In this document: in pieces, positions 32,391-53,205 of the stretch
How positions within the stretch are numbered: the first letter of the stretch is position 1
How the letters are laid out: each line of letters starts with the position of its first letter
Source of the DNA: Candidatus Geocrenenecus huangii
GTDB lineage: Archaea; Thermoproteota; Nitrososphaeria_A; Caldarchaeales; Wolframiiraptoraceae
Assembly: GCA_023254095.1 (NCBI GenBank)
Contig: JALNLM010000005.1
Coordinates: forward strand, 56,383-115,798
Length of the DNA stretch: 59,416 nucleotides
Direction of reading: 5' to 3'
Program-made: the position numbers and the translations under genes
The notes under the pieces: model-generated
Database searches by the model: none
Seen by the model: the letters and a program-made list of their open reading frames with translations, nothing else
Told to the model about the DNA's origin: nothing

Positions 32391-32433
32391 CCGGAAATTG
32401 ACTTCGAGACTAGTTCTCTTCTCTCTTTTCTCC

Positions 32434-33291
32434 TCATTCGATAAACTTCGAAAGTCGCCTAACAAGTTCTTTCACATCTATACATGGTATTGTGAGCTGA
32501 TCGGTAGAGGAAGTTTTGCTGAGGACCTTGATGACAACATTGTTCCCCACTCTCTCTAGTTGATACATATATCCACTTGATGCTCTAAATATCACAGAGT
32601 AGTCCAGGTCGGATTCAATAATCTTCGAGACTCTTTCTCTGAATTCTTTCAATACTTCCTCCGGCTCCAATTCATAGGATATTTCAACTATCTCGTTCAG
32701 AATATTTGGGAGTTCTCTCTTTATCTTTCCTGCAATCTCTTCTGTTAGAGAAGCTAGTTCGTTAATTAATTCTTCTCTTACAGGCTTCGGCATAGATGCA
32801 AGCGCTTTCCTAGAATCTCTGTTTAGAAGATTCCTCAACCCAGTATTCATCATCGCTGAAGATATTCTTGCTTCCTTTATCCAGTCATATAGTGTGTCTT
32901 TAGAGAATCCTAATGCTCTAGCCGCTTCCTCAACATTTCTCCAAATACCTTCGTTGATGCATCTCAAAATAAACTTTCCTTTCTCCGCTGGAGTCAATTC
33001 TTCACGGTTTGTATGCACTATTGCAGCCATCTCCATAGCTTCTCTACGACTACAATCATATATGATACATGGTGCTTTATCTACGTTGAGAATCTTTAAC
33101 GCCTCTAGCCTCGTTCCACCATCGAATACCTCATATTCTCCATCTCTTTTTTTCCTTACGAGAAGAGGTTTAACGATGTTCCTTGATCTGTATGTCTCGA
33201 TTATGCCTTGAATGATTTCAGGACTTCTAGCTTCTCGGGGATTGTAGTCTGCGATTTTGAGCTGGTTTATCGGAATATATTCTATCTCCAA
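32434..33291 (-). CDS. ParB/Srx-family protein with HTH
   Basis: YNPR, PLLVR, YEVFDGGTRLEAL, REELTPAEKG, HTH (VEEAARALGFSKDTLYDW). Confidence 0.88.
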   Translation of the reverse strand: MEIEYIPINQLKIADYNPREARSPEIIQGIIETYRSRNIVKPLLVRKKRDGEYEVFDGGTRLEALKILNVDKAPCIIYDCSRREAMEMAAIVHTNREELTPAEKGKFILRCINEGIWRNVEEAARALGFSKDTLYDWIKEARISSAMMNTGLRNLLNRDSRKALASMPKPVREELINELASLTEEIAGKIKRELPNILNEIVEISYELEPEEVLKEFRERVSKIIESDLDYSVIFRASSGYMYQLERVGNNVVIKVLSKTSSTDQLTIPCIDVKELVRRLSKFIE

Positions 33292-33575
33292 TTCTTCAAC
33301 CTCCTAATTTTCAATACAGGTTTATTAAAATCTTCGACTATTACCTCTATTTCACCATCAGAATCTAGAAAGTGGTTTACGTTAAATTTCTTCAATGAAA
33401 GTGTGAAAACGTCTTTAAGTCTCTCCCCGTATTTTCCCAATACGTCTTTAAGTTCACCTCTACCGATTACTGCTTCATTCCATTCTCCTAGCTTGCTGTC
33501 CAGATTTTCTCTCAGTATTGTCGCGATCCTTGTGACTTGTCTAACCGCTACGTTCTTATTTTTCAGCTTCGGCAT
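33282..33575 (-). CDS. Hypothetical protein
   Basis: Overlaps both neighbours in the RHH-ParB operon; GGAGAGGAGG SD-like sequence upstream. Confidence 0.65.
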   Translation of the reverse strand: MPKLKNKNVAVRQVTRIATILRENLDSKLGEWNEAVIGRGELKDVLGKYGERLKDVFTLSLKKFNVNHFLDSDGEIEVIVEDFNKPVLKIRRLKNWR

Positions 33576-33792
33576 TCTTCCTCCTCTCCAGATATTTCCT
33601 AACCGCTAACCGTACAAGCTGGGAAATCGTCCTTTCCTCTTCTCTAGCAATCTTCTCTAACTCCCCAAACATTTCTACTGGTAGAAAAACCCCGACGAAT
33701 CTCAGACCTCTCCTTTTACTTGATAAAACCTTGTTTAAAGTTCTTTCGTTCTTCTCCATCTCATGTTCTTTTAAAATTTTTTTATCCGTCAT
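33556..33792 (-). CDS. Ribbon-helix-helix (CopG-like) regulator
   Basis: FVGVFLPVEMFGELEKIAREEERTISQLVRLAVRKYL. Confidence 0.85.
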   Translation of the reverse strand: MTDKKILKEHEMEKNERTLNKVLSSKRRGLRFVGVFLPVEMFGELEKIAREEERTISQLVRLAVRKYLERRKNAEAEK

Positions 33793-33856
33793 TTCTGCAC
33801 CAGTTATTTCACCAATAATATATAAATGTTAATTAACCAGTTCTCGACATATTTAT
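33793..33856. promoter_or_regulatory. Divergent promoter region between two RHH genes
   Basis: 64-bp AT-rich spacer containing TATATAAA and ATTTAT boxes. Confidence 0.55.
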
Positions 33857-34237
33857 ATGGTGAGAATGGGTCGAAAAAGTAGTGGGAGGATCGAGAGGTG
33901 GACTATCAGTTTAAAGCCGGAGATAGACCAGCTTCTAGAAAGGGTTGCGAAAGAGAGAGGGTTAAACAAGACCGACCTTGTTGAATCCATCATAGTGGAG
34001 TGGGCTTATAATCATGGGTACAATAAGATAATACATTTCAATTTTAGGGATGGCTTAATATCTGTATGGGATTACCTGCTGAATGAAACAGTAGACCTAC
34101 GTTATGATTCTATTAAGAAAACTCTCATATGTACGAGATGTAAAGCAACATATTGTGGGCATATAGGTGCAGCATTAAAGATACCTGAAGTAAGAAAGAA
34201 ATTAAAGAAGGGTCAAATAATCATTGAAGATATCTAA
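33857..34237 (+). CDS. RHH regulator with C-terminal Zn-binding (SWIM-like) motif
   Basis: WTISLKPEIDQLLERVAKERGLNKTDLVESII; CTRCKATYCGH. Confidence 0.78.
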   Translation: MVRMGRKSSGRIERWTISLKPEIDQLLERVAKERGLNKTDLVESIIVEWAYNHGYNKIIHFNFRDGLISVWDYLLNETVDLRYDSIKKTLICTRCKATYCGHIGAALKIPEVRKKLKKGQIIIEDI

Positions 34238-34830
34238 GAACAGTTCTTAGGTTCCCCGAGCTTCTTTAATATTTCCGTCAAGTCTTTTTCGTTCTTAACT
34301 TCGTTCTTCAGCTTATTGATAACGTGTAGAGTCTCTCTGATCTCTCCGATTATCTTCCTCCTCTCGCTAATAGATGCAATGTAATCCCTAGCAGTAGGCT
34401 TAGACCTCGAAACATCAATGGATTGTTCATCGAACTTCTCGAGCCTACCGAACAGGAGGTTCAGTCTATCAACCAGCTTCAACAATTCTTCTTGTAGGTC
34501 TATGTATCTTACGAAGCGTCTTTCAAGATATCTATACTGGAGTAAGCGTATTTTTTCAGCTTTGATCACGTGCTGACTAAAGTGCTCAACCAAATCATCT
34601 AATCTGAATCCGTATTCTTCCGCTAATTCTCTAATAGACTGAGCTAGCATTACTTTCCTATCTATTTCGATCCTCTCGGGATGAACGCATACTGGGCAAT
34701 CCCTAGAAATAATCACTACTTCTCCATTGAAGTTTCTCACTATATAGATCTCAGGTCTGAACATTCTAACGAATTTAACGACCAATTTTTTAATTAATCT
34801 CGATGTATTCATCAATGATTGAAGGCGCAA
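34234..34830 (-). CDS. HTH/coiled-coil protein, possible terminase small subunit
   Basis: CPVCVHP...SIRELAEEYG...H..QH HTH, then long helices; downstream of portal. Confidence 0.5.
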   Translation of the reverse strand: MRLQSLMNTSRLIKKLVVKFVRMFRPEIYIVRNFNGEVVIISRDCPVCVHPERIEIDRKVMLAQSIRELAEEYGFRLDDLVEHFSQHVIKAEKIRLLQYRYLERRFVRYIDLQEELLKLVDRLNLLFGRLEKFDEQSIDVSRSKPTARDYIASISERRKIIGEIRETLHVINKLKNEVKNEKDLTEILKKLGEPKNCS

Positions 34831-35003
34831 TCATAGTTTTTGGTTTGATAATTGCAATGCTTAGTATACTTAATCTAGTCGATAAAGACCTAGTTAGAGA
34901 CCTCTTAACTATCATTTCCATACTTCTCCCTCTGATCTACTCTTACAGGAGGAGGGAGGACTTCAGGAAGTTCAAAAGCTTATTCAGTAAGAGGACAAGC
35001 TAG
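34803..35003 (+). CDS. Small two-TM protein
   Basis: Two TM helices and a basic tail. Confidence 0.45.
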   Translation: MYSSMIEGAIIVFGLIIAMLSILNLVDKDLVRDLLTIISILLPLIYSYRRREDFRKFKSLFSKRTS

Positions 35004-35374
35004 TGGGAAAGTAGAAATAATAATAGAAGCGTTATGCATATCATCATCAATGGTATCCTCCTTAAGTGGAGGCTTTCTATGAAGCTTAGGAAGAACAATA
35101 TGAAGTTGATTATATACTCGATGATTGCTACTGGATACGGAGGAGATCTGAAGATAGAGTTGACAATAATGGATAAGACAACGGTTATAGACTGGATTAA
35201 CAAGAGAAACAACATTAACTTGTTTTCTTCCCACTCTTTTCTTTTTATCTTTCTCTTTCTAAATCTATTTAGAAGATTTATTGTAATATATGCCAGCAAC
35301 CCCGACCCTAACATTGATAGAAGAACGATTTGCTCCACAGATAATGGATTCATCTCGGTTTTTAAGAACCTCAC
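35000..35374 (-). CDS. Multi-TM membrane protein
   Basis: Three to four hydrophobic helices; directly after the portal gene. Confidence 0.55.
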   Translation of the reverse strand: MRFLKTEMNPLSVEQIVLLSMLGSGLLAYITINLLNRFRKRKIKRKEWEENKLMLFLLLIQSITVVLSIIVNSIFRSPPYPVAIIEYIINFILFFLSFIESLHLRRIPLMMICITLLLLFLLSH

Positions 35375-35399
35375 AAGAGCATGCTGTTGCTGGAGGGAT

Positions 35400-36659
35400 C
35401 TAATCTTTCTTCTGTAAGCTCTTCTCGGGAATTAATTGTCTAGACTCTTCTACTAGTTGAGTAAGCATATCTCTCACATCTGTTTCAAGTAAGATGTTCT
35501 TGTCAATGGGGTGGATTAATGGGAGAGGCGTATCCGCAATGGGGTGGTCGACTTCTTTAAGTCCTAGAGCCTTCCTCGCTTCATTAATTGTTTCTATGCC
35601 TGACTGGATCCTCATTACATGTATCCTTGTTTCCTGCTCAGGGTTAGTCCACTCCAGTAGCTTAAACTTCAAGTTTACTCTATGTCTTCTTCTCAATGCT
35701 TCGGTTACTGCCGCAGATATAGCTTGCTGAATACTTTTAACCTTCATGGTGAAAGCATTTATCTGGTTCCGTGAAGTCTCGAGTGTGGCCGCCTTCGTTA
35801 CTCCGAGCATTATCTCTGGTACACCTGTTACAGTAACTATCTTCTGTCTATACTCATTCAAGATGTCTAGTACTTGTAGTTCTCGGAATGGATGTCCCAG
35901 GTCTTGGATATTTATGTCTCCCTTAAGTATGAAGCTTGAGCCGGGTTTGGATTGTTCAGCTACTTTGACAAGCCTCTCGAAGTCTGCTTCCGTACCGCTC
36001 TTCATTATGAAGACTTTGCTTAGAACACCTTTCCTCATGAATGCATCCCTAACAAGCAGTTCTGCATGCATCTGACCTTCTAAGACTCTTCTAAGCGATG
36101 AGATTATCGGAGACCCGTACGCTCTCGTGCCTAAGGGGTGGAGTACGATGTGGACTATTTCTTCAGGCTTGAATAAGACCTCCATTCCATGTATCTTTTG
36201 AACATACCCTTTTATCCTTCCATGCTCGTCTCTAATTACCTCCATAGTGTAGGTATCAAGTATCTTGAAGACTGGGGTTGTGTAGACTTCAATATACGAT
36301 TCGCCGAATATTACTGAAGACATTACTAGGTTTCTCAAGAACATTATGAAGTCGTTCTCGTTTTGGTTAATCCATTCTTCAACCTTCTTAACATCATCCT
36401 CTTCTCCTATAATCATCCATCCGTTAACTATCGAAGCGTTGACAAGTACTTCGACAGCCGCCCTCAGATCTGGATTTCCCTCAACAAGCTCAAGTAACTG
36501 TCTCTGGTCGAGAGGTTTAGGTTCACCCCACCTCCATCCATGGATCGTCTCAGCCAGCCCTTTCTCCTCTTTCCTAGATTTAAAGAAGTTTTCGAAGAAC
36601 CTCATACATATACTACTATTCTCAAACACTATAATCTCTGAGAATACTTCTTTAGACAT
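35400..36659 (-). CDS. Phage portal protein
   Basis: Follows terminase; IFGESYIEV, GYVQ...FKPEEIVHI...YGSPI, TGVPEIMLG, TINEARKALGL. Confidence 0.9.
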   Translation of the reverse strand: MSKEVFSEIIVFENSSICMRFFENFFKSRKEEKGLAETIHGWRWGEPKPLDQRQLLELVEGNPDLRAAVEVLVNASIVNGWMIIGEEDDVKKVEEWINQNENDFIMFLRNLVMSSVIFGESYIEVYTTPVFKILDTYTMEVIRDEHGRIKGYVQKIHGMEVLFKPEEIVHIVLHPLGTRAYGSPIISSLRRVLEGQMHAELLVRDAFMRKGVLSKVFIMKSGTEADFERLVKVAEQSKPGSSFILKGDINIQDLGHPFRELQVLDILNEYRQKIVTVTGVPEIMLGVTKAATLETSRNQINAFTMKVKSIQQAISAAVTEALRRRHRVNLKFKLLEWTNPEQETRIHVMRIQSGIETINEARKALGLKEVDHPIADTPLPLIHPIDKNILLETDVRDMLTQLVEESRQLIPEKSLQKKD

Positions 36660-36705
36660 GTAGTAAAGCCTAGTAAGGTAAATGAGCCCTTCTACATATG
36701 CCGTT

Positions 36706-38007
36706 TCACCATCTCCATATTTCCGTTATCTTCACTTGTTGCGGTGGGGCTGACGCTGCGTAGACTGCTAGAGCTAGAGCAATTACATAATCGTCGTGGC
36801 CTCCTGAAGGCGCTTCATATCTAGTTCTTCCACTCTTATCTTGTATTCTCTGAAATTGCTGTAGCTGTCTTACTAGTTTCTCGCAGTCTACCGGTATCTT
36901 GACCCGTCGAGCCCTCATATGATTGTATAGATTGAGGATTAATGCTTCTTTCATATTCTGAGTTATGGTTAGTCCTTCGACATTTACGTGATTTCTCGTT
37001 AAGAAGTCATAAATCGGTATGCCCATCCCGGTCTTGTCTATTATTACTCTTACTGGAGATAGGTCGTCTATAAGCTTGGATATATAATCTCTCTGGTAAT
37101 TCATGTCTACCTCGGTGAATTCTTTGACGAAGACTATTCTTAGAAGGTCTTCTGTCGTCTTCTCGAGGACTATTATTACGGTTGAGTCTCTATATCTTCC
37201 TAAATCGATTCCAACGTATAGAGGATTAGAAGTCTTGACCTCTGTATAGTCAGCGTATTGATAATCTTCTAGACATGAAAATATTAATTCTGTTGGGAAT
37301 AAACTGTTTAATTCTTCGAGGAACTCCATCTCCATCTCCTGCATCCATGCTATGTGGGATAAGGTCTTCCTCAATCCTTCGAGGTCTTCGCTTGTAATGT
37401 GAGGTGAGTCGGTATAATGTATTCTATGTTTTGAGTAGACTCCGCTGACCCATGCTTCATAGAACCAACCCCTCCTGCCTTTAGGAGTCGATATCAATGA
37501 TAATCTACCCGATTTTCCAGCGATGATCGGTATGACAGCCGCTTTGATCTCCATATCGTTCCTGAACATGGCCACCTCATCTACGTATACGTGGTCAGCT
37601 CTAAACCCTCGTATCGTGTCTGGGTTATTCGGCAAACATACGATCCTGCTTCCATTCTTGAATGTTATCTCAGTTTTAGACTCAGATTCAACGATGTTTG
37701 TAGAGTATGTATGTTCTCCTATCCTTACTTTCCTACCTTTCAGTATTGATAGGGATTCTTTAATCTTCTTGAATAGCTCCATGCTCTGTCTTAACGAGTA
37801 GCTGAGAAGAAGGATTGTATGGAGTGGTTTTATGAGGCTCCACGTTAATGATTCTAAAGCGATCGTAAAGCTTCCACCTACCGCCCTAGACTTCAACATT
37901 ACTCTAAACCTACTTTTATCGTCAAGCCATCTTCTCTGCCAATCATATAGCTTTATCCCTACATCAGCGATATCTAGAAGAAGCTGAGCTAACTCGCTTA
38001 TCTCCAT
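36706..38007 (-). CDS. terL: Terminase large subunit
   Basis: LYDWQ adenine-binding motif, KSRAVGGS Walker A-like, VYVDEVA Walker B, ISTPKG, nuclease GIDLG and HDDYVIALALA. Confidence 0.95.
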   Translation of the reverse strand: MEISELAQLLLDIADVGIKLYDWQRRWLDDKSRFRVMLKSRAVGGSFTIALESLTWSLIKPLHTILLLSYSLRQSMELFKKIKESLSILKGRKVRIGEHTYSTNIVESESKTEITFKNGSRIVCLPNNPDTIRGFRADHVYVDEVAMFRNDMEIKAAVIPIIAGKSGRLSLISTPKGRRGWFYEAWVSGVYSKHRIHYTDSPHITSEDLEGLRKTLSHIAWMQEMEMEFLEELNSLFPTELIFSCLEDYQYADYTEVKTSNPLYVGIDLGRYRDSTVIIVLEKTTEDLLRIVFVKEFTEVDMNYQRDYISKLIDDLSPVRVIIDKTGMGIPIYDFLTRNHVNVEGLTITQNMKEALILNLYNHMRARRVKIPVDCEKLVRQLQQFQRIQDKSGRTRYEAPSGGHDDYVIALALAVYAASAPPQQVKITEIWRW

Positions 38008-38206
38008 ATCCTCTAATCATCTCGCTTAGGATTTCCTCGGCTAAACGTTTAAGACGTATGATATCGTTTAGCGTCCTCGCTTTACCTTCAATAACTATGT
38101 CTTCTCCGACCTTCTTAACGGCAAGGCTTACCCCATACAATACTTCACTAGTCTTAGGTGGGTACTCTTCTTTACGACTATGGAGTAGCCAGCTCACAGA
38201 ACTCAT
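37964..38206 (-). CDS. Small hypothetical protein upstream of terL
   Basis: 80-aa ORF overlapping the terL start. Confidence 0.55.
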   Translation of the reverse strand: MSSVSWLLHSRKEEYPPKTSEVLYGVSLAVKKVGEDIVIEGKARTLNDIIRLKRLAEEILSEMIRGYGDKRVSSASSRYR

Positions 38207-38307
38207 CGACTAATAGCACATTAAGAATCTGAAACACTGTACTTTGAAATCCTAGATGATCCATATCCTGTATCCTTATATTTTGTTGCATGGTTGTTTA
38301 ATCAGGT

Positions 38308-38832
38308 ATGGCGGATCCCAGGATGGTGAAGTTTACGTTTAATCCGATAGGCGTCGTTAGAGTTGACCTCGAGGATGAATTAGTCAAAGATTCTTTTGAA
38401 GGTGTTGATGGGAGACTAGAGATATTTGAAGAATATGCGGAGGGACTTGAGGGCATAGATGGCTTTACTCATCTCATAGTCATAGCTTATTTACACAAGG
38501 TAACCGGTGAACAAAGAAGTGTTCTTAAAGTAAAGCATAAGAGATTAGTGAGACTCGGTTTCAATGAGAAAGACCTTCCAGAGGTTGGAGTCTTTTGTAC
38601 AGACTCACCTCATCGTCCAAACCCGGTAGCTCTGACAATAGTTCAACTCGTGAAGAGAGAGGAAAACATACTATACGTGAAGAAACTAGACTTGTTCGAT
38701 GGTACACCAATAATAGATATCAAGCCATATACGCTTGATAGAGCGGTAATGGATTTGGGTTTCCCTGGATGGTACATCCAACTGAGAAAGAAGGTTGAAG
38801 GAGAAAGTGGGAAGAGAATACCAGATCTATGA
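38308..38832 (+). CDS. tsaA: tRNA m6t6A37 methyltransferase TsaA/TrmO family
   Basis: PIGVV, GLEGIDGFTHL, GVFCTDSPHRPNPVALT, LDLFDGTPIIDIKPY. Confidence 0.92.
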   Translation: MADPRMVKFTFNPIGVVRVDLEDELVKDSFEGVDGRLEIFEEYAEGLEGIDGFTHLIVIAYLHKVTGEQRSVLKVKHKRLVRLGFNEKDLPEVGVFCTDSPHRPNPVALTIVQLVKREENILYVKKLDLFDGTPIIDIKPYTLDRAVMDLGFPGWYIQLRKKVEGESGKRIPDL

Positions 38833-38848
38833 TCTACAACCCATGTAT

Positions 38849-39430
38849 TCATCTTGTATTGTTTTTGTTTAGCTTCTCTTCTAGCCTGGATATTTTCCAG
38901 ACAAGTATGGCTATTAGGGCTTTTAGGTCGTATCCATTCTCCCTCCTTACGATTTCAGGTAGCTCTTCCGCTATGAACCCTATCTCCTCTCTGCTCTGCC
39001 CTATCTTCCGCTTATATTTCTTAGGTTTCGGAAAAACGATCTTTTCCAATTCCGCCTCATTTAGTTCCCTTATCTCAGTCTTGTCATCTACGCTAGACCC
39101 AATCGTTATATTCGCGGTAACCACATCATTCAGATAAGCATCTAAGTCGCCGATCTTCAGTATATTTCGATCTGGAGGTTTCAGTACTCCTTCTAACGTT
39201 AGTCGTATCGTTAATTCTTCCGAAGGAGAAAACTCTATCCCACCTCCACGCTCATCGCTTATTCTTCTGACCCCTAATGACCCATTCTCGATCTCAGCGA
39301 TCTTTCTTTCAAGAAAAATATTTTGATTTTTTAATTTTAAGTCTTCCTCTTCAAGTGCCTCGAGCCAGACCTTAAGCTTCTCAGCGGCCTCAATCGGTAG
39401 GCCTGTTCCAGTATCTATTCTCCGCATCAT
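38849..39430 (-). CDS. Short tail fibre/spike protein with C-terminal intramolecular chaperone (peptidase S74-like)
   Basis: SSVDDK...PKKY...GFIAEELPE...LVWKISRLEEKL. Confidence 0.8.
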   Translation of the reverse strand: MMRRIDTGTGLPIEAAEKLKVWLEALEEEDLKLKNQNIFLERKIAEIENGSLGVRRISDERGGGIEFSPSEELTIRLTLEGVLKPPDRNILKIGDLDAYLNDVVTANITIGSSVDDKTEIRELNEAELEKIVFPKPKKYKRKIGQSREEIGFIAEELPEIVRRENGYDLKALIAILVWKISRLEEKLNKNNTR

Positions 39431-39431
39431 G

Positions 39432-44730: not shown

Positions 44731-44732
44731 CT

Positions 44733-45325: not shown

Positions 45326-45345
45326 ATTCTATCAACCCTCAGACA

Positions 45346-45711
45346 TCATGATCTTAAGAGATTGAAAGAGGACTTTACCCTAGCTATAGCTTTCTCTGCA
45401 GCAGGCTTCATGAATGGTCTAGGAGGCATCCTCCTAGTTCCGAACTCGACGAAAGGAGCATAATATGGTTTACCCTTCTCCCTAGATGGGTATCCAGCAA
45501 CTATTCTAAACTCGAAGTCTCCACGTCTCTCTAGATTTATGGAGCTGCGAAGTCTACCAGTCCTTACATGCACCGTCTCCCTGGCAGTATTGTATGCTTC
45601 TATAGATGCTTCTAGGAGCGTGTCTGATGTTTTCCTGCGTATCTTCTCATAGATCTTCATCAAGGAATCTTTCAGGTTCTCCTCTTCTTTCAAGATTACC
45701 TCAAACATCAT
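45346..45711 (-). CDS. HK97 gp10-like tail completion protein
   Basis: HVRTGRLRSSI...YAPFVEFGTRRMPPRPFMKPA. Confidence 0.92.
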   Translation of the reverse strand: MMFEVILKEEENLKDSLMKIYEKIRRKTSDTLLEASIEAYNTARETVHVRTGRLRSSINLERRGDFEFRIVAGYPSREKGKPYYAPFVEFGTRRMPPRPFMKPAAEKAIARVKSSFNLLRS

Positions 45712-45717
45712 CTATCC

Positions 45718-46614
45718 CTAATATTCTTCGATGTCGTCTTTTACCTCGACGTTTATCTTCTTAGGGTAGAGTCTAATAGTCTGCATAAGTACCTCCGCCT
45801 CGAAGGGTACTTCTGCCTCGGCCTCTATTAAGCAATCCTGGAGATTGAAGTGTATGTAGTCATCACTGGAGCGGGTCAACCTCAACTCGATATCAACGAT
45901 GCTTCTTGATAGAAACTTATCCAGCAATATAGCATCTTCGAAGATTAGGTCTAATTCTCCTTCGCATTCAGCTTTCGTCAACTTGAAACCTGATACGTGG
46001 TCCCCGACCCTAGGCATCTCTTCTAGATTGTTGCTTATGGATAGGCTCGCACTAACTATAGATGCATATTCTACCCCCTCAATATACAATTTCATATCGT
46101 TGAATCTATAAGGCTTCTTGTTCGGTAAGCTTATGGCTGGGTCGGTGTATGGGGAGACTATAGATACTGACTTAGCTCTACACTCTAGAGAGACTGTAAC
46201 GAGTCCATCAGATTCTATAGAGATGTCGGCTGAGTCGACTAAAACCCCAGTAGCTCTTTCAGCGATCGACGTCTCACCGATCCTGGCAGCCTCCACCGTG
46301 ATAGACTTTAAGCTGTTCCCAAACTCAATAAGATGAGTGTATGGGGAGCTTGAACCACTACTAACTACTTTTCCAAAAACGTATTTTAAGAATTTTCCAG
46401 AGATGGGTAGGAACTCTATAGTTGGAGAGAAGTTCAACCCTATGGGTATTCTATCATAGTTTTCTCTTTCGCCCACCCTGACATCCTGATATACTAGCTC
46501 TCCTCCAGAATTCCATCTCCTAGCTATCCCTAGAACATCTAGCATAGATGCTGGCTCACCATACTCTTCTTCCTCACCGTAATACAGCTTCCTGATCATG
46601 TATCCCGACAGCAT
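45718..46614 (-). CDS. Tail tube (major tail) protein
   Basis: YGEEEEYGEP N-terminus, LKYVFG, YTH, SLSISNNLE; position in the module. Confidence 0.78.
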   Translation of the reverse strand: MLSGYMIRKLYYGEEEEYGEPASMLDVLGIARRWNSGGELVYQDVRVGERENYDRIPIGLNFSPTIEFLPISGKFLKYVFGKVVSSGSSSPYTHLIEFGNSLKSITVEAARIGETSIAERATGVLVDSADISIESDGLVTVSLECRAKSVSIVSPYTDPAISLPNKKPYRFNDMKLYIEGVEYASIVSASLSISNNLEEMPRVGDHVSGFKLTKAECEGELDLIFEDAILLDKFLSRSIVDIELRLTRSSDDYIHFNLQDCLIEAEAEVPFEAEVLMQTIRLYPKKINVEVKDDIEEY

Positions 46615-46626
46615 GGTTTAAACATT

Positions 46627-47838
46627 CTATGAAATACTTTTAATCTCTGAGAAGAGTTCATTCTTCATATCGATAGCTGACTTAACGTCTAGCAGACCTG
46701 CTCCAAATAAGTTTCTAGGATCTAGAATCAGGGGAAGTTGTTCAGAGAATACCATAGATAGCTTCCTAACATTCTTGGGTTTCTTCTCTTTGAAGAGGAG
46801 TATTCTATCTGCTTGATAGTCTAACGGGAGAGGTCTAGAAGAAAGATGTAGAATACGTCTAGTAGCTATTGCAGAGTTCAAGTCTCTGTTTATTATAGAT
46901 GCGGTAGCTGTAACCCATGGAGCTGCAAAACTTGTGCCCTTCAAAGATACATCGTTCAAGATGAATAAACCTGGAGCAACTAAGTCTGGCTTAAATCTTC
47001 CATCGAGTGTGGGGCCACGGCTTGAGTATTTCCACAACTTGCCTTTAGTATCGGTTGCGCCTACAGTTATAGCATGTCTGGCCGCTCCGGGTGAACCTAC
47101 AGACATCATTCTAGGTCCACCATTTCCCGCCGCCACCACCACTGCTATCTTCTTCTCTTGTGAAAGATAGTTTACGTATAAGCTTAGGGGATCACATCCA
47201 TCACTCCATGTCTCGCTCTGGATACTTAGATTGACAGCGTGAACTCTCAATTCTATACAGTTTTTCAAAGCCGTTATTACTACGTAGTCTGGGATAGCCC
47301 CTTCTTCTTCGAAAACCTGTATAACGTGGATGTTTGCTTCGGGGATAAGCTTATGGATTATCGAGTGTATGTATCTTCCATGGCCTTCACCATCTATTAT
47401 CGATGCCTCGTATATTGATATCTTAGCTTTGCTCGGAGTATCTTCTGACGCTCCAGAATCTATTATTGCTACCTCGCATCCTTTTCCTCTCTCTTCTTCT
47501 AAATGTATATCTATGAATCGTGTTAATCTCAGGGCTTCTTCGAATCCGCCGTCTTTCTGATTTTTGTAACTGCTTAAAAACCTGTATCTTAAGCCTCTGC
47601 AAACATGGGCTCCCTCCCCCCTCCTAACTCTCTCTATAGCTGATTCTGCATCTTCTACTTTCTCGATTTCTCCAGACAGCCTGCAGACCCAGTAATGTCT
47701 TGAAGTATCCCCTCTATCTTTAGATACCAGCATCCTCCACTTGCTTGGGCCGAAGGGACAGACGTTTTCACAGCATTGTAGAGGAAGCCTTTTCCCACAT
47801 ACGTATCTTGAGGAAAACTTAATTCTGTAGATGCACAT
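46627..47838 (-). CDS. Subtilisin-like S8 serine protease with Cys-rich N-terminus
   Basis: Catalytic triad AIIDSG / GHGRYI / GTSFAAP; AAGNGG; SSRGP...KPDLVAPG. Confidence 0.93.
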   Translation of the reverse strand: MCIYRIKFSSRYVCGKRLPLQCCENVCPFGPSKWRMLVSKDRGDTSRHYWVCRLSGEIEKVEDAESAIERVRRGEGAHVCRGLRYRFLSSYKNQKDGGFEEALRLTRFIDIHLEEERGKGCEVAIIDSGASEDTPSKAKISIYEASIIDGEGHGRYIHSIIHKLIPEANIHVIQVFEEEGAIPDYVVITALKNCIELRVHAVNLSIQSETWSDGCDPLSLYVNYLSQEKKIAVVVAAGNGGPRMMSVGSPGAARHAITVGATDTKGKLWKYSSRGPTLDGRFKPDLVAPGLFILNDVSLKGTSFAAPWVTATASIINRDLNSAIATRRILHLSSRPLPLDYQADRILLFKEKKPKNVRKLSMVFSEQLPLILDPRNLFGAGLLDVKSAIDMKNELFSEIKSIS

Positions 47839-48219
47839 CTATCTTGAAACCTCCTTTAACACGAGTATCATGCTTTTCCGATGAATTCCCCCCTCCTCAA
47901 TATCTATGATCCTGTAGAAACGTATTGGGTACCATCCATATCTTAGATAGTTTTCAGAAGATCTGCTGAGAAGACTTCCCAGTATCTTCTCAACTATCTC
48001 ATCACGTTGTTTAGCGGATATTGCCCATACGTCAATCTGGAATTCATAGACTCTATACTGAAGATTTGTTAATGCTATCGGTTCTGATGAACCATTATTC
48101 TGGATTATCGTGATTAGCGGGATTAAGTCGTTGTTAGATATCCATGCAGTCTTAACGGGTATGCCTACGATCTGCTTAATCTCTTCTGCGAGTTTCTCTA
48201 GAATTCCAGGTATAGGCAT
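47839..48219 (-). CDS. Tail terminator/completion protein
   Basis: PLITI...FQIDVWA motif; position after the adaptor. Confidence 0.7.
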   Translation of the reverse strand: MPIPGILEKLAEEIKQIVGIPVKTAWISNNDLIPLITIIQNNGSSEPIALTNLQYRVYEFQIDVWAISAKQRDEIVEKILGSLLSRSSENYLRYGWYPIRFYRIIDIEEGGIHRKSMILVLKEVSR

Positions 48220-48220
48220 G

Positions 48221-49063
48221 CTACAGCACCTTAACCTGTCTAGGAAGATTCTTCTTGATTCGTTCAACTTCTTTCCTGAGAAACTCTAATCTGCTGAATA
48301 TTTCTCCAGGCTTCTTGAACACCATAGATATTCTTCCCTGGTATTCTGGCTCAGTAGTGTACAGCATGCTTATCCTAGAGAGGACATGATAGGATGATAA
48401 TAGTAAGGCAGCTTGCTTAACTATTCCAGGTACCTCAGAGTATCCTGAAAGATATCTCACCCTTACATAGAATGCAGTAGGGACATACCAGGGTGGAAGG
48501 ACCACCCCTGCACAATATTTTTTCAACCTGATTACTCCAAGCTCAGGGTAACATTCATACATGCTTGGTTTGAGCTCTTCCAATACTTCACCATTATGCG
48601 ATTCAACGATTATTGACTCGATCCTGATGACTGGAGTATTGAGGAGAGATATAGTGTTCCCGTGAGACAGGTATACTCGTTCTTCATGTAGTGATTCTTT
48701 AAAGCTTCTTCCACATTCTGAGTCTATTTCTCCTTCTGCTGCATCTATGGCTACTTTAAGTTCATGGTCACTTACTGGATGCCATGAATAAGATGCTGTA
48801 ACATCTAGGCCTGGAGGTGGAGACTCAAGCAAACTTATACATCCCTCATCACAATCTACGCTAGATACTTGAACGGGCAGTCCACCGACTTTAACTTCTA
48901 CATCATCTATTACTACTCCATCGTAATCTGGGTCTACTATCGGTTTAAACAATGTATGAAATTCTTTCGTCACCCCGTCGCCTACTCCGATCTTCTCGTC
49001 TGTGACTCTTATCGGAGTAAATTGTAGAAACCTTCTAAGATCCCCTACACTACAGTAACTCAT
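48221..49063 (-). CDS. Head-tail adaptor (gp6/gp15-like) with inserted beta domain
   Basis: MSYCSVGDL start; AIDAAEGEIDSECGRSF; VRYLSGYSEVPGIVKQA. Confidence 0.8.
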   Translation of the reverse strand: MSYCSVGDLRRFLQFTPIRVTDEKIGVGDGVTKEFHTLFKPIVDPDYDGVVIDDVEVKVGGLPVQVSSVDCDEGCISLLESPPPGLDVTASYSWHPVSDHELKVAIDAAEGEIDSECGRSFKESLHEERVYLSHGNTISLLNTPVIRIESIIVESHNGEVLEELKPSMYECYPELGVIRLKKYCAGVVLPPWYVPTAFYVRVRYLSGYSEVPGIVKQAALLLSSYHVLSRISMLYTTEPEYQGRISMVFKKPGEIFSRLEFLRKEVERIKKNLPRQVKVL

Positions 49064-49087
49064 CAGGAAATGATGTTGCTTGGATAT

Positions 49088-50551
49088 CTAATTTTTCTGA
49101 GAATTCAGATTCTGTGGGTCGGGGTACTCTTTGTATACTGGGTTCTTCCAGACATAGTATACTGTAGGGATAGGAGTTTTCTTCAAGGCTTCAGCCATTG
49201 CCTCAATATCTCCGTAAACTACTTTCTTTAGTAGCTTGGCATCTCTCTTAAACTTCGGATTATACGTCTTCAACATGATCTTCTTCAACCTCTTCAAGAC
49301 AGGCTTATCTAATGTCTTCAATACCTCCAAGTTGTGTTTTTTCGATTGTATCATATCCAGTCTGAATCCCATCTCCTCCAGTCTCCTATAGATGTACTCG
49401 ATCATTTCCGAAGGCCTAGTATCTATTCTCATCATCCCGGCTTTCTCGAGGAATGGGTGGTACCTGGCCATTGCTGCAAGGCACTCAATATACGGGACAC
49501 CTAGCAAAGGCATAGTCTCTCTAATTAGCTTGACCGAAAGCCCTATACCTCTATACTTAGGGTGAACTATTATTCTCGCAAGCCTCCTAAAACATCTATT
49601 AACATAGTCTAGATAACTTTTTCTAGATTTTCTACTTAATTCTCTTAGATGTGTAAAGGCCTCATATCTCGCCTTCAAGTATGCATGCGGGTATGTGTAT
49701 AGAATTACGCCGACTACTTTCCCTCCTAGCTTTGCACGGTAGATCTTCGACCCCCATCCTCTAAACCCACCTTTATAATGCCAAAATTCTAAGCTTTTGA
49801 GATCTCTCATATCACCTTGCTCAATAACAATGTTTTTCATTAAACTACATTCTCTAGGTTCAGGCTTGAAGTATTCTATCTCGACTTCTGGGCCTAAACC
49901 TTTTCTTATCAAGATGTTTGGGTTCGCATCATAGATCAAATCTTCATGGGTAGTGGCCACAACTAGAGTTATCCCCATCTTACGGCATATCTTCTGGATT
50001 AGGTAAGCTACAACCTTCGCCGTCTCTCTATCAAGGGTTGCGCAGAATTCATCAAACACTAAGGTCTTGGCATTCTTATCTAAGGCTTTAGCAAGCTTAT
50101 ACCTATATTTTTGCCCATCACTTAGCTCTTCATATCTTCTCAAGTAAATGTAGGCGTCGCTGAGACCAGTATAGTTAAGTATCTCTAGAGCCTGCTGAAA
50201 TGATTCACCAACACCATGTATCACCAACTCGTTTCTTCTTATGGCGATGTTTCTCTCGGTTACGATCGGCATAAATTCTTTATGTTTACTCATTTCCTCA
50301 GCAAGCATTAATAGGAGAGTTGTTTTCCCTCCCCCGCTCTCCCCCGTAACATATACGATGTCGCCGGGGTTGATGTCTACCTCAAATTCTCTGAACAACG
50401 TGAATGCTTTCTCCTCATCTATCCCTAAACCGAATGCTCTAGCAACTTCCACCGTCCTTCTAGTTACAGGAGCAATAACTCTAAACTCTTTATCTACTCG
50501 GAAAAGTTTCTGGAATCTATAGCTGGGCCTATACTTGATCTTGAGCTTCAC
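49088..50551 (-). CDS. ABC-type ATPase fused to GNAT (Mom-like) acetyltransferase
   Basis: GESGGGKT, LSDGQ, LVFDEF, ATTH; then WHY and RLARIIVHPKYRGIGLS acetyl-CoA motif; no TM domain. Confidence 0.85.
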   Translation of the reverse strand: MKLKIKYRPSYRFQKLFRVDKEFRVIAPVTRRTVEVARAFGLGIDEEKAFTLFREFEVDINPGDIVYVTGESGGGKTTLLLMLAEEMSKHKEFMPIVTERNIAIRRNELVIHGVGESFQQALEILNYTGLSDAYIYLRRYEELSDGQKYRYKLAKALDKNAKTLVFDEFCATLDRETAKVVAYLIQKICRKMGITLVVATTHEDLIYDANPNILIRKGLGPEVEIEYFKPEPRECSLMKNIVIEQGDMRDLKSLEFWHYKGGFRGWGSKIYRAKLGGKVVGVILYTYPHAYLKARYEAFTHLRELSRKSRKSYLDYVNRCFRRLARIIVHPKYRGIGLSVKLIRETMPLLGVPYIECLAAMARYHPFLEKAGMMRIDTRPSEMIEYIYRRLEEMGFRLDMIQSKKHNLEVLKTLDKPVLKRLKKIMLKTYNPKFKRDAKLLKKVVYGDIEAMAEALKKTPIPTVYYVWKNPVYKEYPDPQNLNSQKN

Positions 50552-50569
50552 GCCAAAGATATGTGTAAT

Positions 50570-50576
50570 AAAAAAA
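50570..50576 (-). terminator. Oligo-T terminator candidate after capsid gene
   Basis: T7 tract ~30 nt downstream of the MCP stop on the minus strand. Confidence 0.4.
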
Positions 50577-50606
50577 TATTGGTGTGAGAATCGGATAGTC
50601 GAGGTT

Positions 50607-51560
50607 CTACTGGCTTAGGGTATTCTTGATTATGTAGACTGCGTCTGGTCTAAGTATTCTCCACGCAAACCTCTCGGAGGCCACGATTATTGTTAATCCT
50701 TTCTTCACATCTCTATCTCTCTCGATAAGAATCCTTCTTCTATCTCCACCAACAGCTGCTAGGCTTGGATTACATATTATCACATCGCTAACTAGGGTCT
50801 GGTCAGCTGCTGAGTAATTTCTCCGAGACAGATAGCTTGTCTCAATAATCTTCACACCGTATATCGTTGGTAATTCTCCAGACGAGATAACTTGAGATGA
50901 GAGAGTATCTAAGCCTTTATCTGAGAGGTCTTTTCTAAGATAGGAGGCTGCAAACGGATTCAGGAAACAGACTAAATTATCAGCATATCCTTGTTCTTCA
51001 AAGTATGATAAAGCATTACTGATATCATTTAATGTTAGAGCGTTTTTCTCTAAGTCTACTATCTTAGCTTCATCTGAAGCTGTTAGCCTCGATAAACCCG
51101 TGAATAGATTATAGGCGTCAGACCCTGACCCGTCGCCTGTTAAGGCATTTCTTTCTTCACATTCTGCGAATTTCTTACCTAGATGAAGTACACTTCTAGC
51201 GATTACATCTATCTTGGCTTCCTCTGACGCTACGTCCGTAATCGATGTCCATGCACGTATCTCTTTAGCTATGAGCTCCACAGGTGTACCGAACAATATC
51301 TTGCTCTCCTCGATCTCCGCTCCTTCTGAAGATGGAGAGTACACCTCCACCGTTCCTGACTCGACATACCATTTTACTATATCTGAATCCATCGTTATCC
51401 AGGGGAATAGCTGTCTAACGTATGTCTTCTTCCATACATATTCTATGATATCTCTTGCAACTACCTCCGGGATTTCCGGAAAACCTGTATCTCCGCTTGT
51501 CAAAGCTTTATAGAATTCTAGGTATGCTTCAAAGCTTTTACCGATATCTAACTTATTCAT
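50607..51560 (-). CDS. Major capsid protein (HK97-like fold)
   Basis: After the protease; IPEVVARDII, SEGAEIEES, EERNALTGDG, LPTIYGVKI, ERFAWRILRPDA. Confidence 0.9.
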   Translation of the reverse strand: MNKLDIGKSFEAYLEFYKALTSGDTGFPEIPEVVARDIIEYVWKKTYVRQLFPWITMDSDIVKWYVESGTVEVYSPSSEGAEIEESKILFGTPVELIAKEIRAWTSITDVASEEAKIDVIARSVLHLGKKFAECEERNALTGDGSGSDAYNLFTGLSRLTASDEAKIVDLEKNALTLNDISNALSYFEEQGYADNLVCFLNPFAASYLRKDLSDKGLDTLSSQVISSGELPTIYGVKIIETSYLSRRNYSAADQTLVSDVIICNPSLAAVGGDRRRILIERDRDVKKGLTIIVASERFAWRILRPDAVYIIKNTLSQ

Positions 51561-51586
51561 GTATGCTATACCCTACAGAAGATTAT

Positions 51587-52771
51587 TTAGTCTGAGAATT
51601 CATCGTAAATCTCCCTGTAGAGTTTAACCAGCATAGATGACTTATCCAATCTATGGTCTCTACTATTATTCTTAGAGACCAGTTCATCTTTTACAATGAG
51701 CCCTTTCTCAGTATTCTCAGAGTCGGTCTGAATACTCTTATACATTACATGTTTCTCCAACTTCTCCAATCTATTGTGTATGTCTTCAATTACTCTTACA
51801 TCAACTGTTCCGAGATAGCATGCTCCTAGAGATTTCTCAGACCTCTTCCATGGGACGATATAGTTTTCAGTTAGAAAACCTTCTTCAATCATACGGTTAA
51901 CAAGTTTCTCTAATGCTTCCTTAACTTCAGCTGGAGGGCTAACCCCCCTCGCTCCACTGGCATACTTGACCGCCGTCATTATGCCACTCGTAACTAACAC
52001 GGGTTTCCCATCAACGATGTCGCCTACCGGCCATGAGTAATCACTTCTATTCTTTCCGTCGCCTTCGACTACCAGAAATAGCTTAGAAGCTTTCTCTCTA
52101 TCAATCGTCCCATCTTCTCTCTCAGCCCAATCGAGTATTCTTTTAGCTGCTTCTCTACCATCCCATTCCCCCCTCTCAACAATTTTTAAGTCGTAGTCTA
52201 CTTTCTCAAGCCGTAAAGGTTCATTCATGTATTCTTCAGGATCTGTACTAGTTATTTCTCTGAGAAAACCATTTGAGATACTGTAGGATTTACCAAGTAT
52301 CCTTATTATTTTAGCTGAAGGATTTACTCCTCTAGGTGTAAGGCTTACCTCACGTATCTCTGCTTCCTCGATAATGTTTATATCTCCAACACGCTTGAGC
52401 TTCTTCACAACCCCTCCTATGCTTAATGCTTTCAATACTCCCTTCTTTACATAATCCCAGATTTCGCTAAATGCACGGTATATCCCCGCTTTAATCTTTA
52501 ATGCTTTATCCTCTATCCATGCATCAATTATTCTGCCGACCGGCTTACCGCCTATACCGCTCTCTCTACCATGTAGTAGCAGTATAGGTTTACCCTTAAG
52601 ATTCCGAGCATTCTCTATCAACACCTCTGGCATTATCTTATCACCTTCAAGATCGACGTCCGCCGTTGACGCGATACCTTCAAAGAATCCGATAAATTCT
52701 TCTTCTGCAATATCTTCTTTGACCATCACTGGTTCTAGGAACAATATCGTTTGGAATGCTTTTTCAGACAT
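51587..52771 (-). CDS. HK97-type prohead protease with C-terminal extension
   Basis: FEGIAST..VDLEGD, LLLH, PVG, ALSIGG, EVSLTPRGVNPSA. Confidence 0.9.
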   Translation of the reverse strand: MSEKAFQTILFLEPVMVKEDIAEEEFIGFFEGIASTADVDLEGDKIMPEVLIENARNLKGKPILLLHGRESGIGGKPVGRIIDAWIEDKALKIKAGIYRAFSEIWDYVKKGVLKALSIGGVVKKLKRVGDINIIEEAEIREVSLTPRGVNPSAKIIRILGKSYSISNGFLREITSTDPEEYMNEPLRLEKVDYDLKIVERGEWDGREAAKRILDWAEREDGTIDREKASKLFLVVEGDGKNRSDYSWPVGDIVDGKPVLVTSGIMTAVKYASGARGVSPPAEVKEALEKLVNRMIEEGFLTENYIVPWKRSEKSLGACYLGTVDVRVIEDIHNRLEKLEKHVMYKSIQTDSENTEKGLIVKDELVSKNNSRDHRLDKSSMLVKLYREIYDEFSD

Positions 52772-52797
52772 TTCTGAGAACCCATAGTAGGCTAAGA

Positions 52798-53205
52798 TTA
52801 TCTTTTTGAGAATTTGACCATCTTTTTAGTAGTATTATTCACTATTGTTACAGCTTTCCTCGTAGTTGTGATAAGCCCTAGCTGAGATATGAGTGAAACA
52901 GCAGAATCCAACGGTAAGTTTAGGAAGCCCATCAAGATGCCTATAGCTAATCCATGAATCACCGTCTTCAAGAATTCTCCCCAATTGAAATATAGTTTCT
53001 CCCCGTAGATCTTACTCCATATAATCAAGCTGACTAAGTATGCGGTCTCCTCTACTTTTTCATATTCATTTTTTTCATCAAGTATCTTCTCAGCGATCTC
53101 TCTTGGATCTATTTCAAAGCTTCCAACAGTATTCTTAAGATATCCGAGGATAGAGTAGATCGTGCCTGCTATCAAACCTAGAATTACGTGGGTATAGTTC
53201 ATCAC
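52798..53205 (-). CDS. Small membrane protein, holin-like candidate
   Basis: Two to three hydrophobic segments and a basic C-terminus; first gene of the structural operon. Confidence 0.5.
   Translation of the reverse strand: MMNYTHVILGLIAGTIYSILGYLKNTVGSFEIDPREIAEKILDEKNEYEKVEETAYLVSLIIWSKIYGEKLYFNWGEFLKTVIHGLAIGILMGFLNLPLDSAVSLISQLGLITTTRKAVTIVNNTTKKMVKFSKR

Follow-up and report, generated by a model that had tools for sequence, protein, structure and literature searches.

Is a complete set of tailed-particle genes in an archaeal chromosome a resident virus, the wreck of one, or a particle that the host has made its own? The question is raised by a cluster of about 21 kb in Candidatus Geocrenenecus huangii, at positions 32434-53205 of the window analysed here (the whole stretch of 59,416 nucleotides; positions 56,383 to 115,798 of contig JALNLM010000005.1, GenBank assembly GCA_023254095.1). 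An earlier note on this DNA had located the cluster, with coordinates and content that hold, and had proposed a candidate gene transfer agent (GTA). The cluster comprises 25 tightly packed open reading frames (ORFs), 23 of them on the minus strand and all of them open, from the stop of a ParB-like gene at 32434 to the start of a 135-amino-acid (aa) membrane-protein gene at 53205. Portal, large terminase subunit (TerL), protease, major capsid protein (MCP), adaptor, terminator, gp10, tube, tape measure protein (TMP), tip and fibre are each recognised, such that the head, tail and packaging set is complete. Comparison across the genus identifies the cluster as an ancient provirus derivative: immobile, fixed at one site, co-diverged with its hosts, ameliorated in composition, and held under purifying selection along the lineages that lead to the two intact copies. 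With a confidence somewhat above even, we favour the view that a temperate tailed virus of Caldarchaeales gave rise to it by domestication, and that its predicted product, a particle of the GTA or PBSX type, would benefit the host. As a GTA it is a good candidate, and an unproven one.

The genome analysed (G000; 1.61 Mb, 32 contigs, 40.7% G+C) was compared within a genus set of eight Candidatus Geocrenenecus genomes (G000-G007) and with a wider set of 41 relatives. With one exception the genomes are drafts, assembled from metagenomes or single cells, and frameshifts in remnant copies are possibly assembly errors; the deletions, however, sit within contigs. All 25 cluster ORFs were searched against Pfam, PHROGs and NCBIfam. 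The host tree was built from four proteins of eight taxa, and the element tree from portal, TerL and two small ORFs of six genus taxa with a viral outgroup. Synonymous divergence (dS) and the ratio of nonsynonymous to synonymous divergence (dN/dS) are pairwise NG86 estimates. Our working definition of a GTA is that of the reviews cited in PMC6563490, and includes the delivery to recipients of random host DNA in pieces shorter than the cluster.

Fixity, co-divergence and constraint at one site

A capsid search of the 41 relatives returns close matches in only two of the seven other genus members, a seemingly patchy distribution. That impression was revised because the DNA beyond the radical SAM orthologue proved to hold remnants: downstream of this gene, in every one of the seven other genus genomes, lies either the cluster or what is left of it. 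In G007 the cluster is whole. In G004 everything between adaptor residue 27 and fibre residue 93 has been cleanly deleted, so that the tail module is gone while head and packaging genes are kept. G005 reads from ParB to tip before its contig ends, and neither MCP nor TMP was found elsewhere in this 95%-complete assembly, whether through loss or through an assembly gap. G001 is missing the ParB end, shows apparent frameshifts in TerL and the 80-aa ORF, and has its fibre fused to the first 68 codons of the protease. What remains in G002 is a partial ParB, a broken portal and a broken TerL, with the host gene TrmO directly adjoining the surface-protein gene; in G006 TrmO together with a ParB tail, a stub of the protease and the 135-aa gene in frameshifted form; and in G003 a ParB fragment only. 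TMP and 14.4 kb of cluster DNA, sought in G001, G002, G003, G005 and G006, yielded fragments only. The earlier note had named patchy presence beside an empty site as a sign against a GTA. This is borne out only in part: two of eight copies are whole, but the sites without viral genes are deletion remnants rather than clean empty sites, and there is one site per genus.

A related arrangement appears in run X14, whose deepest contig (depth 58) derives from a related lineage. There, ParB is joined to the 80-aa ORF across a 4.8-kb deletion, 33145-37941, with 49 other letters between, in a manner that resembles G006.

Element and host trees agree at every supported node, namely (G001,G005) and (G004,G007). 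In the host tree the wreck in G006 is sister to the intact G007, and the losses are therefore recent and independent, on terminal branches. The vertical inheritance at a fixed locus expected of a GTA is thus observed: the same site in 8/8 genomes, congruent trees, and host-like dS. In essence, the genus ancestor acquired a provirus between the radical SAM gene and the surface-protein gene, and its descendants have kept or eroded it there.

Synonymous divergence between G000 and G007, although near saturation, is close to that of host genes. Three host genes give dS values of 0.87, 0.96 and 1.74 with dN/dS of 0.04-0.10; 21 cluster genes give dS of 0.44-2.8, most of them about 0.86-1.6, with dN/dS of 0.055-0.256, MCP being the most constrained (0.055), and portal (0.058) and TerL (0.076) similarly low. 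For TMP and tip dS is too saturated to estimate, and one cluster gene, encoding the 359-aa distal tail protein, has no G007 orthologue; an unrelated and intact 858-aa ORF stands in its place. The intact distal-tail replacement ORFs of G007 would fit a receptor-binding module still in use. Unselected DNA at this divergence would not be expected to keep some 6,900 codons open. Even in G004, the head and packaging genes retain dN/dS values of 0.06-0.17 despite loss of the tail module. Structural genes are accordingly under the purifying selection expected of a GTA.

The borders offer no means of movement. Pfam, PHROGs and NCBIfam give none of the 25 ORFs a match to a family of integrases, polymerases, primases or helicases, as the earlier note had judged, and no such gene turned up among the hypothetical ORFs, where it had allowed that one might. 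Nor does any direct repeat of at least 16 nt bracket the cluster, again as the note had it; the same scan recovered the 61-nt repeat of a neighbouring 4.5-kb element. A PF00589 search of the whole G000 genome gave no match, and is insensitive, since it also missed the SSV-type integrase at 58416-59339; in five other genomes the PF00589 matches lie far from the clusters. The only tRNA genes of the window, for Asn (30922-30997) and Leu (54744-54829), are both outside the cluster, and no tRNA gene lies near the related clusters. An integrase and att repeats at the borders, the marks of an active provirus, were not found, nor can a gene for replication be recognised in the cluster as it now stands. 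Its flanks are the ordinary genes that the earlier note described, a radical SAM gene and one for a Thr-rich, membrane-anchored surface protein. The possibility that the true provirus borders run from tRNA-Asn to tRNA-Leu was considered and rejected, as no repeat joins both tRNAs; wider borders are also ruled out, because the radical SAM and surface-protein genes persist where viral genes are gone.

Composition is that of the host. Cluster G+C is 42.0%, against 40.7% for the genome, and among 229 genome windows of 20 kb its tetranucleotide distance ranks at the 85th percentile, with the TMP and tip block as the sole outlier of the cluster (98th percentile). Observed/expected ratios for cluster, genome and 4.5-kb element are, respectively, 1.35, 1.46 and 1.04 for CTAG and 1.23, 1.08 and 0.0 for TCGA, which bears out an earlier judgement by eye that the cluster shares the frequent words of its host and that the 4.5-kb element does not. 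For the GTA interpretation of the earlier note, then, the tests it had proposed—locus (7/7 other genus members), tree congruence, selection (dN/dS 0.05-0.26) and composition—favour domestication; against it stand the two intact copies among eight, and the fact that the idea was already in print.

Relatives beyond the genus and CRISPR spacers

The nearest relatives outside the genus are two viral contigs, IMGVR_UViG_3300005573_000237 (L059/L060; 28.9 kb) and IMGVR_UViG_3300005860_000042. The first is 72% identical to the cluster in MCP, 62% in TerL and 63% in portal (TerL identity to the two contigs is 57-62%), and both share the ParB-like, 97-aa, 198-aa, S8, tube and TMP genes with the cluster. 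Beyond the portal, IMGVR_UViG_3300005573_000237 carries a 515-aa protein, a RecA/KaiC-like ATPase, a ParB-like protein, a phosphoesterase, a PLD nuclease and a ribbon-helix-helix (RHH) protein, and at the contig end a tyrosine integrase (PF00589, 1e-21). IMGVR_UViG_3300005860_000042 has the same accessory set, with an integrase remnant and the phosphoesterase between its homologues of the 135-aa and ParB-like genes; the 135-aa homologue (29% identical) lies beside TerL. Of these, the integrase, RecA/KaiC-like ATPase, 515-aa protein, phosphoesterase and PLD nuclease have no homologue in the cluster or elsewhere in G000, and are absent from the chromosomal clusters of other genera save for fragments in L056.

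Relative to IMGVR_UViG_3300005860_000042, the structural block is inverted in the G000 cluster, with the result that all viral genes of the latter but one are co-directional. The genes that flank the integrase remnant and phosphoesterase in this contig correspond to the two ends of the cluster. Integration at an att site beside the integrase, with later loss of that end, would be the simplest history consistent with these gene orders.

A homologous cluster occurs in Caldarchaeum-titled records, with an MCP of 44-46% identity and ParB, ABC, S8, TMP and TerL genes in common. It too is fixed, between genes for aconitase and an aldo-keto reductase, with no integrase and no tRNA. The Caldarchaeum pair G030 and G036 is unsaturated: flanking genes show dS of 0.25-0.31 and dN/dS of 0.04-0.08, and cluster genes dS of 0.19-0.44 and dN/dS of 0.06-0.17. 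Six ORF rows in this comparison (o434, o8796, o12551, o15247, o15598 and o27477), with dN/dS of 0.95-7 at very low dS, were excluded as spurious; two visibly overlap the portal and the terminator/S8 genes in another frame or strand, overlap is assumed for the other four, and portal, terminator, gp10 and small ORFs were recomputed separately. In both genera, then, the locus is fixed, synonymous divergence is host-like while constraint is strong, and some copies are wrecked.

The ABC ATPase gene is common to the chromosomal clusters of three genera; neither IMG/VR contig was found to hold it, both contigs being fragments. In the other genera it stands where the viral contigs have the RecA-like ATPase and 515-aa genes. 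In clusters outside Geocrenenecus the S8 protease matches as two pieces (residues 1-86 and ~98-400; for example L015 13053-14151), in different frames at the two loci checked by coordinates (L015 and L017), which could reflect a split gene, a programmed frameshift or two genes. Weak capsid matches in G009, G013 and G017 (genus g3; 23-24% identity, E ~1e-4) hint that a further genus of the family harbours a tailed provirus of another kind.

A further line of evidence comes from CRISPR arrays. Contigs of four hot-spring runs that hold the organism, placed on 31400-51399, contain pieces of about 40 nt that match the cluster and are flanked by a repeat, and such spacer-sized matches were found in all four runs. 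The sites are 40316-40355, 42574-42618 and 49755-49797, with further starts at 40150, 43317 and 49818; two of them fall within the ABC ATPase gene, a gene that the two viral relatives lack. The repeat, GAATCTCA[A/T]AAAGAGAATTGAAAG, lies in G000 on contigs C12, C20, C21, C28 and C32, and is present in 8/8 genus genomes and 14 of 24 other family members. Of the 140 spacers present in the genus assemblies, 15 belong to G000 and 125 to five relatives; where they match the clusters, they do so over no more than 14-23 nt. From JGI, 80 metagenome arrays with the family repeat yielded 2,776 unique spacers, none of which matches the G000 genome at ≥80% coverage and ≥85% identity; 133 short matches to G000 at E ≤0.01 look like chance.

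The viral relatives fare differently under the same 2,776 spacers. As many as 68, from 15 of the 80 arrays, match IMGVR_UViG_3300005573_000237 at ≥90% identity over ≥90% of their length, and one matches IMGVR_UViG_3300005860_000042 over its full length. A YCN motif lies upstream of the 68 viral protospacers, with T or C at -3 in 65 and C at -2 in 64, and IMGVR_UViG_3300005573_000237 is a real target of hosts that carry the family repeat. Two of the three placeable sites in the window also carry YCN (TCT, TCA), and one does not. As a lead rather than a result, DNA at least 90% similar to the cluster, its ABC gene included, appears to have been sampled by arrays with this repeat in the home springs of the organism; the comparison covered the cluster and no host-DNA control. 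Among the G000-like contigs none has a joint that bypasses the cluster, a weak check confined to contigs.

Genes of the cluster and its neighbours

The gene set that the earlier note called complete does include full head, tail and packaging functions, but the actual gene order is non-canonical, the terminase not being first, and a host gene and several non-structural genes lie inside. The latter encode an ABC-type ATPase, an S8 subtilase, a ParB protein with a helix-turn-helix (HTH), and an RHH protein; nine of the 25 ORFs have no assigned function. Since capsid, portal and terminase are present and conserved, the cluster differs from a tailocin, which has tail genes only. Defence-system models (PADLOC) found nothing in the cluster beyond generic ATPase and protease similarity.

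The first block, read along the coding (minus) strand, opens with the 135-aa predicted membrane protein (52798-53205), which has hydrophobic stretches and a weak spanin-like match (phrog_739, 3.8e-4). It is followed by the prohead protease with a C-terminal extension (394 aa; 51587-52771; phrog_80, 1.3e-11, with TIGR01543 at 1.8e-4 below cut-off) and, immediately downstream, the HK97-fold MCP (317 aa; 50607-51560; PF05065, 1.1e-18). The ABC-type ATPase (487 aa; 49088-50551) matches PF00005 (5.2e-13) and phrog_293 (9.3e-34); its NCBIfam ABC matches are generic and all far under cut-offs. The second half of this protein matches phrog_886, and its G007 orthologue (L013 4285-5751) contains a stretch that looks like the acetyl-CoA-binding motif of GNAT acetyltransferases. 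Next come the head-tail adaptor (280 aa; 48221-49063; phrog_442, 6.4e-12; DUF2460 at 24.5 bits, below cut-off) and a tail terminator-like protein (142 aa; 47839-48267), assigned by a weak match (phrog_78, 2.8e-4) and position. The S8 subtilisin-like serine protease (403 aa; 46627-47838; PF00082, 7.4e-28) lies within the tail module, and its homologues occupy the same position in all related clusters.

Tail genes make up the remainder of this block: the tube protein (298 aa; 45718-46614; PF18906, 8.6e-24), an HK97 gp10-like tail completion or Neck1 protein (45346-45711; PF04883, 2.5e-6; phrog_5, 5.8e-18), and two overlapping ORFs of 89 and 143 aa (44733-45325; overlap 44894-45002). The latter were named chaperones in the earlier note. 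They are indeed open and lie in the tail-assembly-chaperone position between gp10/tube and TMP, and the name is taken from that position only, as neither has an informative Pfam or PHROG match. The TMP (781 aa; 42385-44730; PF10145, 6.8e-28) precedes a tail tip or distal tail protein (638 aa; 40484-42400; phrog_1887, 1.7e-6) that is 41-58% identical in other genera, the 359-aa distal tail protein (39432-40511; NF041539 choice-of-anchor R domain, 2.3e-11), and a 193-aa fibre (38849-39430) with a C-terminal intramolecular chaperone domain (Peptidase_S74; PF13884, 2.4e-5; phrog_1980). At some 1.5 Å per residue, a rule of thumb, the 781 residues of the TMP would predict a siphovirus-like tail about 115 nm long.

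Between the two viral blocks, on the plus strand, is embedded the tRNA methyltransferase gene TrmO (38308-38832; PF01980, 1.4e-28), a host gene rather than a viral one. It is single-copy in G000 and present in 28 of 41 relatives and in 8/8 genus members. Other genera carry it elsewhere in the genome, whereas in every genus member whose sequence reaches it TrmO lies between both viral blocks, and it has been retained in G006 and G002 despite deletion of the surrounding viral genes. The TrmO gene of G003 sits on a separate contig, no viral gene lying closer to it than 1.5 kb. Two extra ORFs beside TrmO in G007 (L013 17829-19831) were considered as an integrase and rejected: they are a methyltransferase fragment and an LPG_synthase_TM-like protein.

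The second block begins, on the minus strand, with an 80-aa ORF (37964-38206) that has no family match, overlaps the TerL start, and takes the small-terminase position, by which alone it is placed; it is kept immediately upstream of TerL in relatives of three genera. TerL itself (433 aa; 36706-38007; PF03237, 3.2e-13) has 118 invariant columns across nine relatives at 44-82% identity, and is followed by the portal (419 aa; 35400-36659; PF04860, 1.7e-22). Of the two small ORFs beyond, the 124-aa ORF (35000-35374) has no meaningful family match and orthologues of 42-55% identity in G007, G005 and G001. The other (198 aa; 34234-34830) is a viral hypothetical found downstream of the portal in all relatives, and is the largest ORF without assignment outside the tail module. 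It has no Pfam or PHROG match; its nearest protein Atlas clusters are all hypotheticals of Uroviricota (tailed viruses), with no recombinase family among them, and its IMG/VR homologue has weak HTH matches.

Four further genes close the cluster. A 126-aa ORF on the plus strand (33857-34237) has a weak Arc-like repressor match (phrog_582, 6.9e-4) and homologues of 27-84% identity in the chromosomal clusters of three genera, with none found in the IMG/VR contigs. Back on the minus strand are an RHH (CopG-type) DNA-binding protein (78 aa; 33556-33792; PF01402, 1.2e-6) and a conserved hypothetical of 97 aa (33282-33575), with no match in Pfam, PHROGs or NCBIfam, that is always upstream of the ParB-like gene, including beside ParB in relatives and both IMG/VR contigs. 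The ParB-like protein with HTH (285 aa; 32434-33291; PF02195, 1.8e-12; TIGR00180, 78.4 bits against a cut-off of 58.45) also matches an excisionase-type HTH at 27.4 bits, slightly below the cut-off of 28.8. Its gene ends the cluster, with the stop of the convergent radical SAM gene 43 bp away, and has homologues in all related clusters and both IMG/VR contigs.

Two neighbours of the cluster deserve description in their own right. At 54786-59350 a 4.5-kb element is integrated at tRNA-Leu(GAG) between perfect 61-nt direct repeats (54786-54846 and 59290-59350). One of its genes encodes a protein of 612 aa that combines an AAA_25 (RecA/DnaB-like) ATPase domain with an AbiEi-type HTH; the N-terminal half of this protein, judged by eye, may be a primase. 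Another encodes an SSV-type integrase of 307 aa, which the Pfam integrase model missed and for which the repeat supplies the first 17 codons. The composition of the element is foreign (99.7th percentile of 4.5-kb windows), with TCGA absent and GGCC at three times expectation. On the other side, 27406-30492 holds an SMC-like ATPase (580 aa; PF02463, 3.4e-36; PADLOC mad3, 1e-32, and LmuB, 1.9e-18) followed by ORFs of 255 and 197 aa without family. This trio is kept in place in four other genus genomes, and may serve defence or repair.

Readings of the cluster and known systems

The course of events that best accommodates the domestication of a temperate virus can be outlined as follows. An ancestral provirus would have landed between the radical SAM and surface-protein genes, lost its integrase-proximal end, and descended vertically at this single site with its head, tail and packaging genes under purifying selection. 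The 23 co-directional genes may still build head-tail particles, which the 80-aa ORF and TerL would fill through the portal with whatever DNA is available. The benefit under selection would then be that of the host, the cluster working as a GTA or as a defective-prophage particle of the PBSX type. Particle production is predicted from the genes, and we infer host benefit because the element is unable to copy or integrate itself. A broader proposition is that the cluster and its Caldarchaeum and Calditenuaceae counterparts are working GTAs of thermophilic Thermoproteota, the first in TACK archaea, derived from immobilised integrase-bearing viruses and kept by host-level selection in at least two genera, with the ABC ATPase specific to domestication. 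This we hold only tentatively, and regard as rather doubtful.

Several observations weigh against a domesticated, host-serving particle. The whole set survives in only two of eight species (G000 and G007), short of the retention across a clade expected of a GTA; at least five genus species have lost large parts by deletion; and G038, a third species of the Caldarchaeum genus, has remnants only at the same site. Because most sister species recently deleted parts of the cluster its function would be dispensable, and a function so easily lost may be weak or conditional; such recent loss speaks against a strong, general benefit. The dS values of the G000-G007 pair are near saturation, and purifying selection could stem from unseen selfish spread. 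As leads, the spacers indicate that DNA of the cluster or of a near relative is treated as foreign by some array, and they are more readily explained by a particle or virus with DNA of the element inside than by packaging of host DNA strictly at random. Finally, a GTA-like idea for this family of elements is not new, because it was proposed for CalSub-Pro in PMC6563490.

The losses lend themselves to another explanation, in which a defective provirus is in slow decay, has no present function, and is intact by chance in G000 and G007. Large deletions or frameshifts at the same site in at least five of eight genus genomes and in G038 accord with this, as do the related lineage of run X14, whose contig with the 4.8-kb deletion is the deepest (depth 58), and the absent integrase and replication module. 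We nonetheless find it unlikely: dN/dS of 0.05-0.26 at dS of about 1 across 21 genes, and of 0.06-0.17 in the Caldarchaeum pair, cannot be reconciled with prolonged neutral decay. Since every ORF is open in both G000 and G007, each internal lineage that joins them must have kept the set, and the losses lie on terminal branches, as for G006, the sister of intact G007.

Constraint of this kind would also be expected were the cluster domesticated for a use other than transfer, either as a PBSX-like killer particle or as a resident structural module that acts against, or profits from, infections of the same hosts by the related viruses that bear an integrase. The same evidence of selection and immobility applies; related viruses attack hosts with the same CRISPR repeat; and the head and packaging genes of G004 stay at dN/dS 0.06-0.17 without a tail module. 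Yet nothing in the sequence is specific to killing or interference, PADLOC matches being generic only, and we judge such a use improbable. About as improbable is a cluster that is still a virus—an inducible, possibly helper-dependent provirus that packages its own DNA, by means of unrecognised or host functions or of homologous re-entry at the site. Its close relatives are CRISPR-targeted and bear an integrase, repeat-flanked spacer-sized matches to the cluster occur in 4/4 runs, with two sites in the ABC ATPase gene and YCN at two of three sites, and there is room for hidden functions in nine function-less ORFs and in the ParB excisionase-type HTH slightly under cut-off. Set against this are the want of any integrase, att site or replication family, the host-like composition, and the single locus in 8/8 species with a congruent tree and host-like dS, from which no horizontal movement is seen since the genus diverged. 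Neither the 2,776 JGI spacers nor the 140 genus-assembly spacers match the cluster, and the G000-like contigs, which are weak evidence, contain no joint that skips it.

Among known systems, PBSX of Bacillus is a killer particle, an immobile defective prophage whose DNA-filled particles cannot propagate, and Bobay and colleagues (2014; cited in PMC5797428) reportedly described a pervasive domestication of defective prophages. Like this type, the cluster is a prophage remnant that no longer moves, keeps to one locus and is subject to purifying selection; it differs in that no lysis or killing function was recognised in it. RcGTA-type agents are head-tail clusters of about 15-20 kb without replication or integration genes, co-directional, vertically inherited, under purifying selection, ameliorated, and often lost or truncated. 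Immobility, vertical descent, selection, amelioration and lineage losses are likewise found here. There is no homology to RcGTA beyond shared HK97-type fold families, and conservation of the cluster is shallower, at genus level with two of eight copies intact; random packaging of host DNA, host regulation and transfer have been shown for RcGTA, whereas the cluster is known from its genes alone. The VTA of Methanococcus voltae, also cited in PMC5797428, is the archaeal precedent for a tailed-particle GTA; its host is a euryarchaeal methanogen, its likeness to the cluster is one of description only, and it did not appear among the results of our searches. To our knowledge, only this one archaeal GTA, in a methanogen, has been studied. 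The IMG/VR contigs, by comparison, add an integrase or its remnant and the accessory genes and lack the ABC ATPase, and the first is hit by 68 spacers where the cluster is hit by none.

The closest counterparts are elements already described. In PMC6563490, GTA-like domestication is proposed for CalSub-Pro of Ca. Caldiarchaeum subterraneum, and with PMC5797428 the published speculation extends to Nvie-Pro1 and NCAV2-Pro1; there the GTA idea for Nitrososphaeria and Caldarchaeales is a remark on single genomes, and in the text of the two papers we found no analysis of locus conservation, dN/dS or decay. A preprint of 2025 on viruses of Caldarchaeales (10.1101/2025.08.23.671958) describes viral structural genes in these hosts as horizontal transfers, and in its searched text the terms 'gene transfer agent' and 'domesticat' do not occur. 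A term search of PMC9246946, a paper on Geocrenenecus, found no mention of viruses, and nothing further emerged from the literature searched on CalSub-Pro, Geocrenenecus, or GTAs with archaeal Caudoviricetes.

CalSub-Pro, Nvie-Pro1 and NCAV2-Pro1 share with the cluster a set of head-tail genes in a Nitrososphaeria/Caldarchaeales chromosome without att sites or replication genes, and the CalSub-Pro type also has an S78-type protease immediately upstream of MCP and a serine protease gene. The Caldarchaeum-titled clusters, which are homologous and syntenic to ours, are equated with CalSub-Pro from organism titles and described gene content, so that CalSub-Pro itself is compared here by description. 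On that footing, the G000 copy differs in belonging to another family and genus, and in its site, its inverted structural block and its embedded TrmO; the cluster would be a further member of a kind already proposed in print. What we did not find in the text of those papers is the comparative case—locus fixity, tree congruence, dS parity, dN/dS, a decay series and integrase-bearing relatives—with a second genus that shows the same pattern independently. Together they provide material for how and why archaea keep virus particles of their own, with the ABC ATPase, S8 protease and ParB-HTH as candidate genes. If the predicted particles do move DNA between cells at 70-80 °C, they would constitute an uncounted route of gene exchange in hot-spring archaea.

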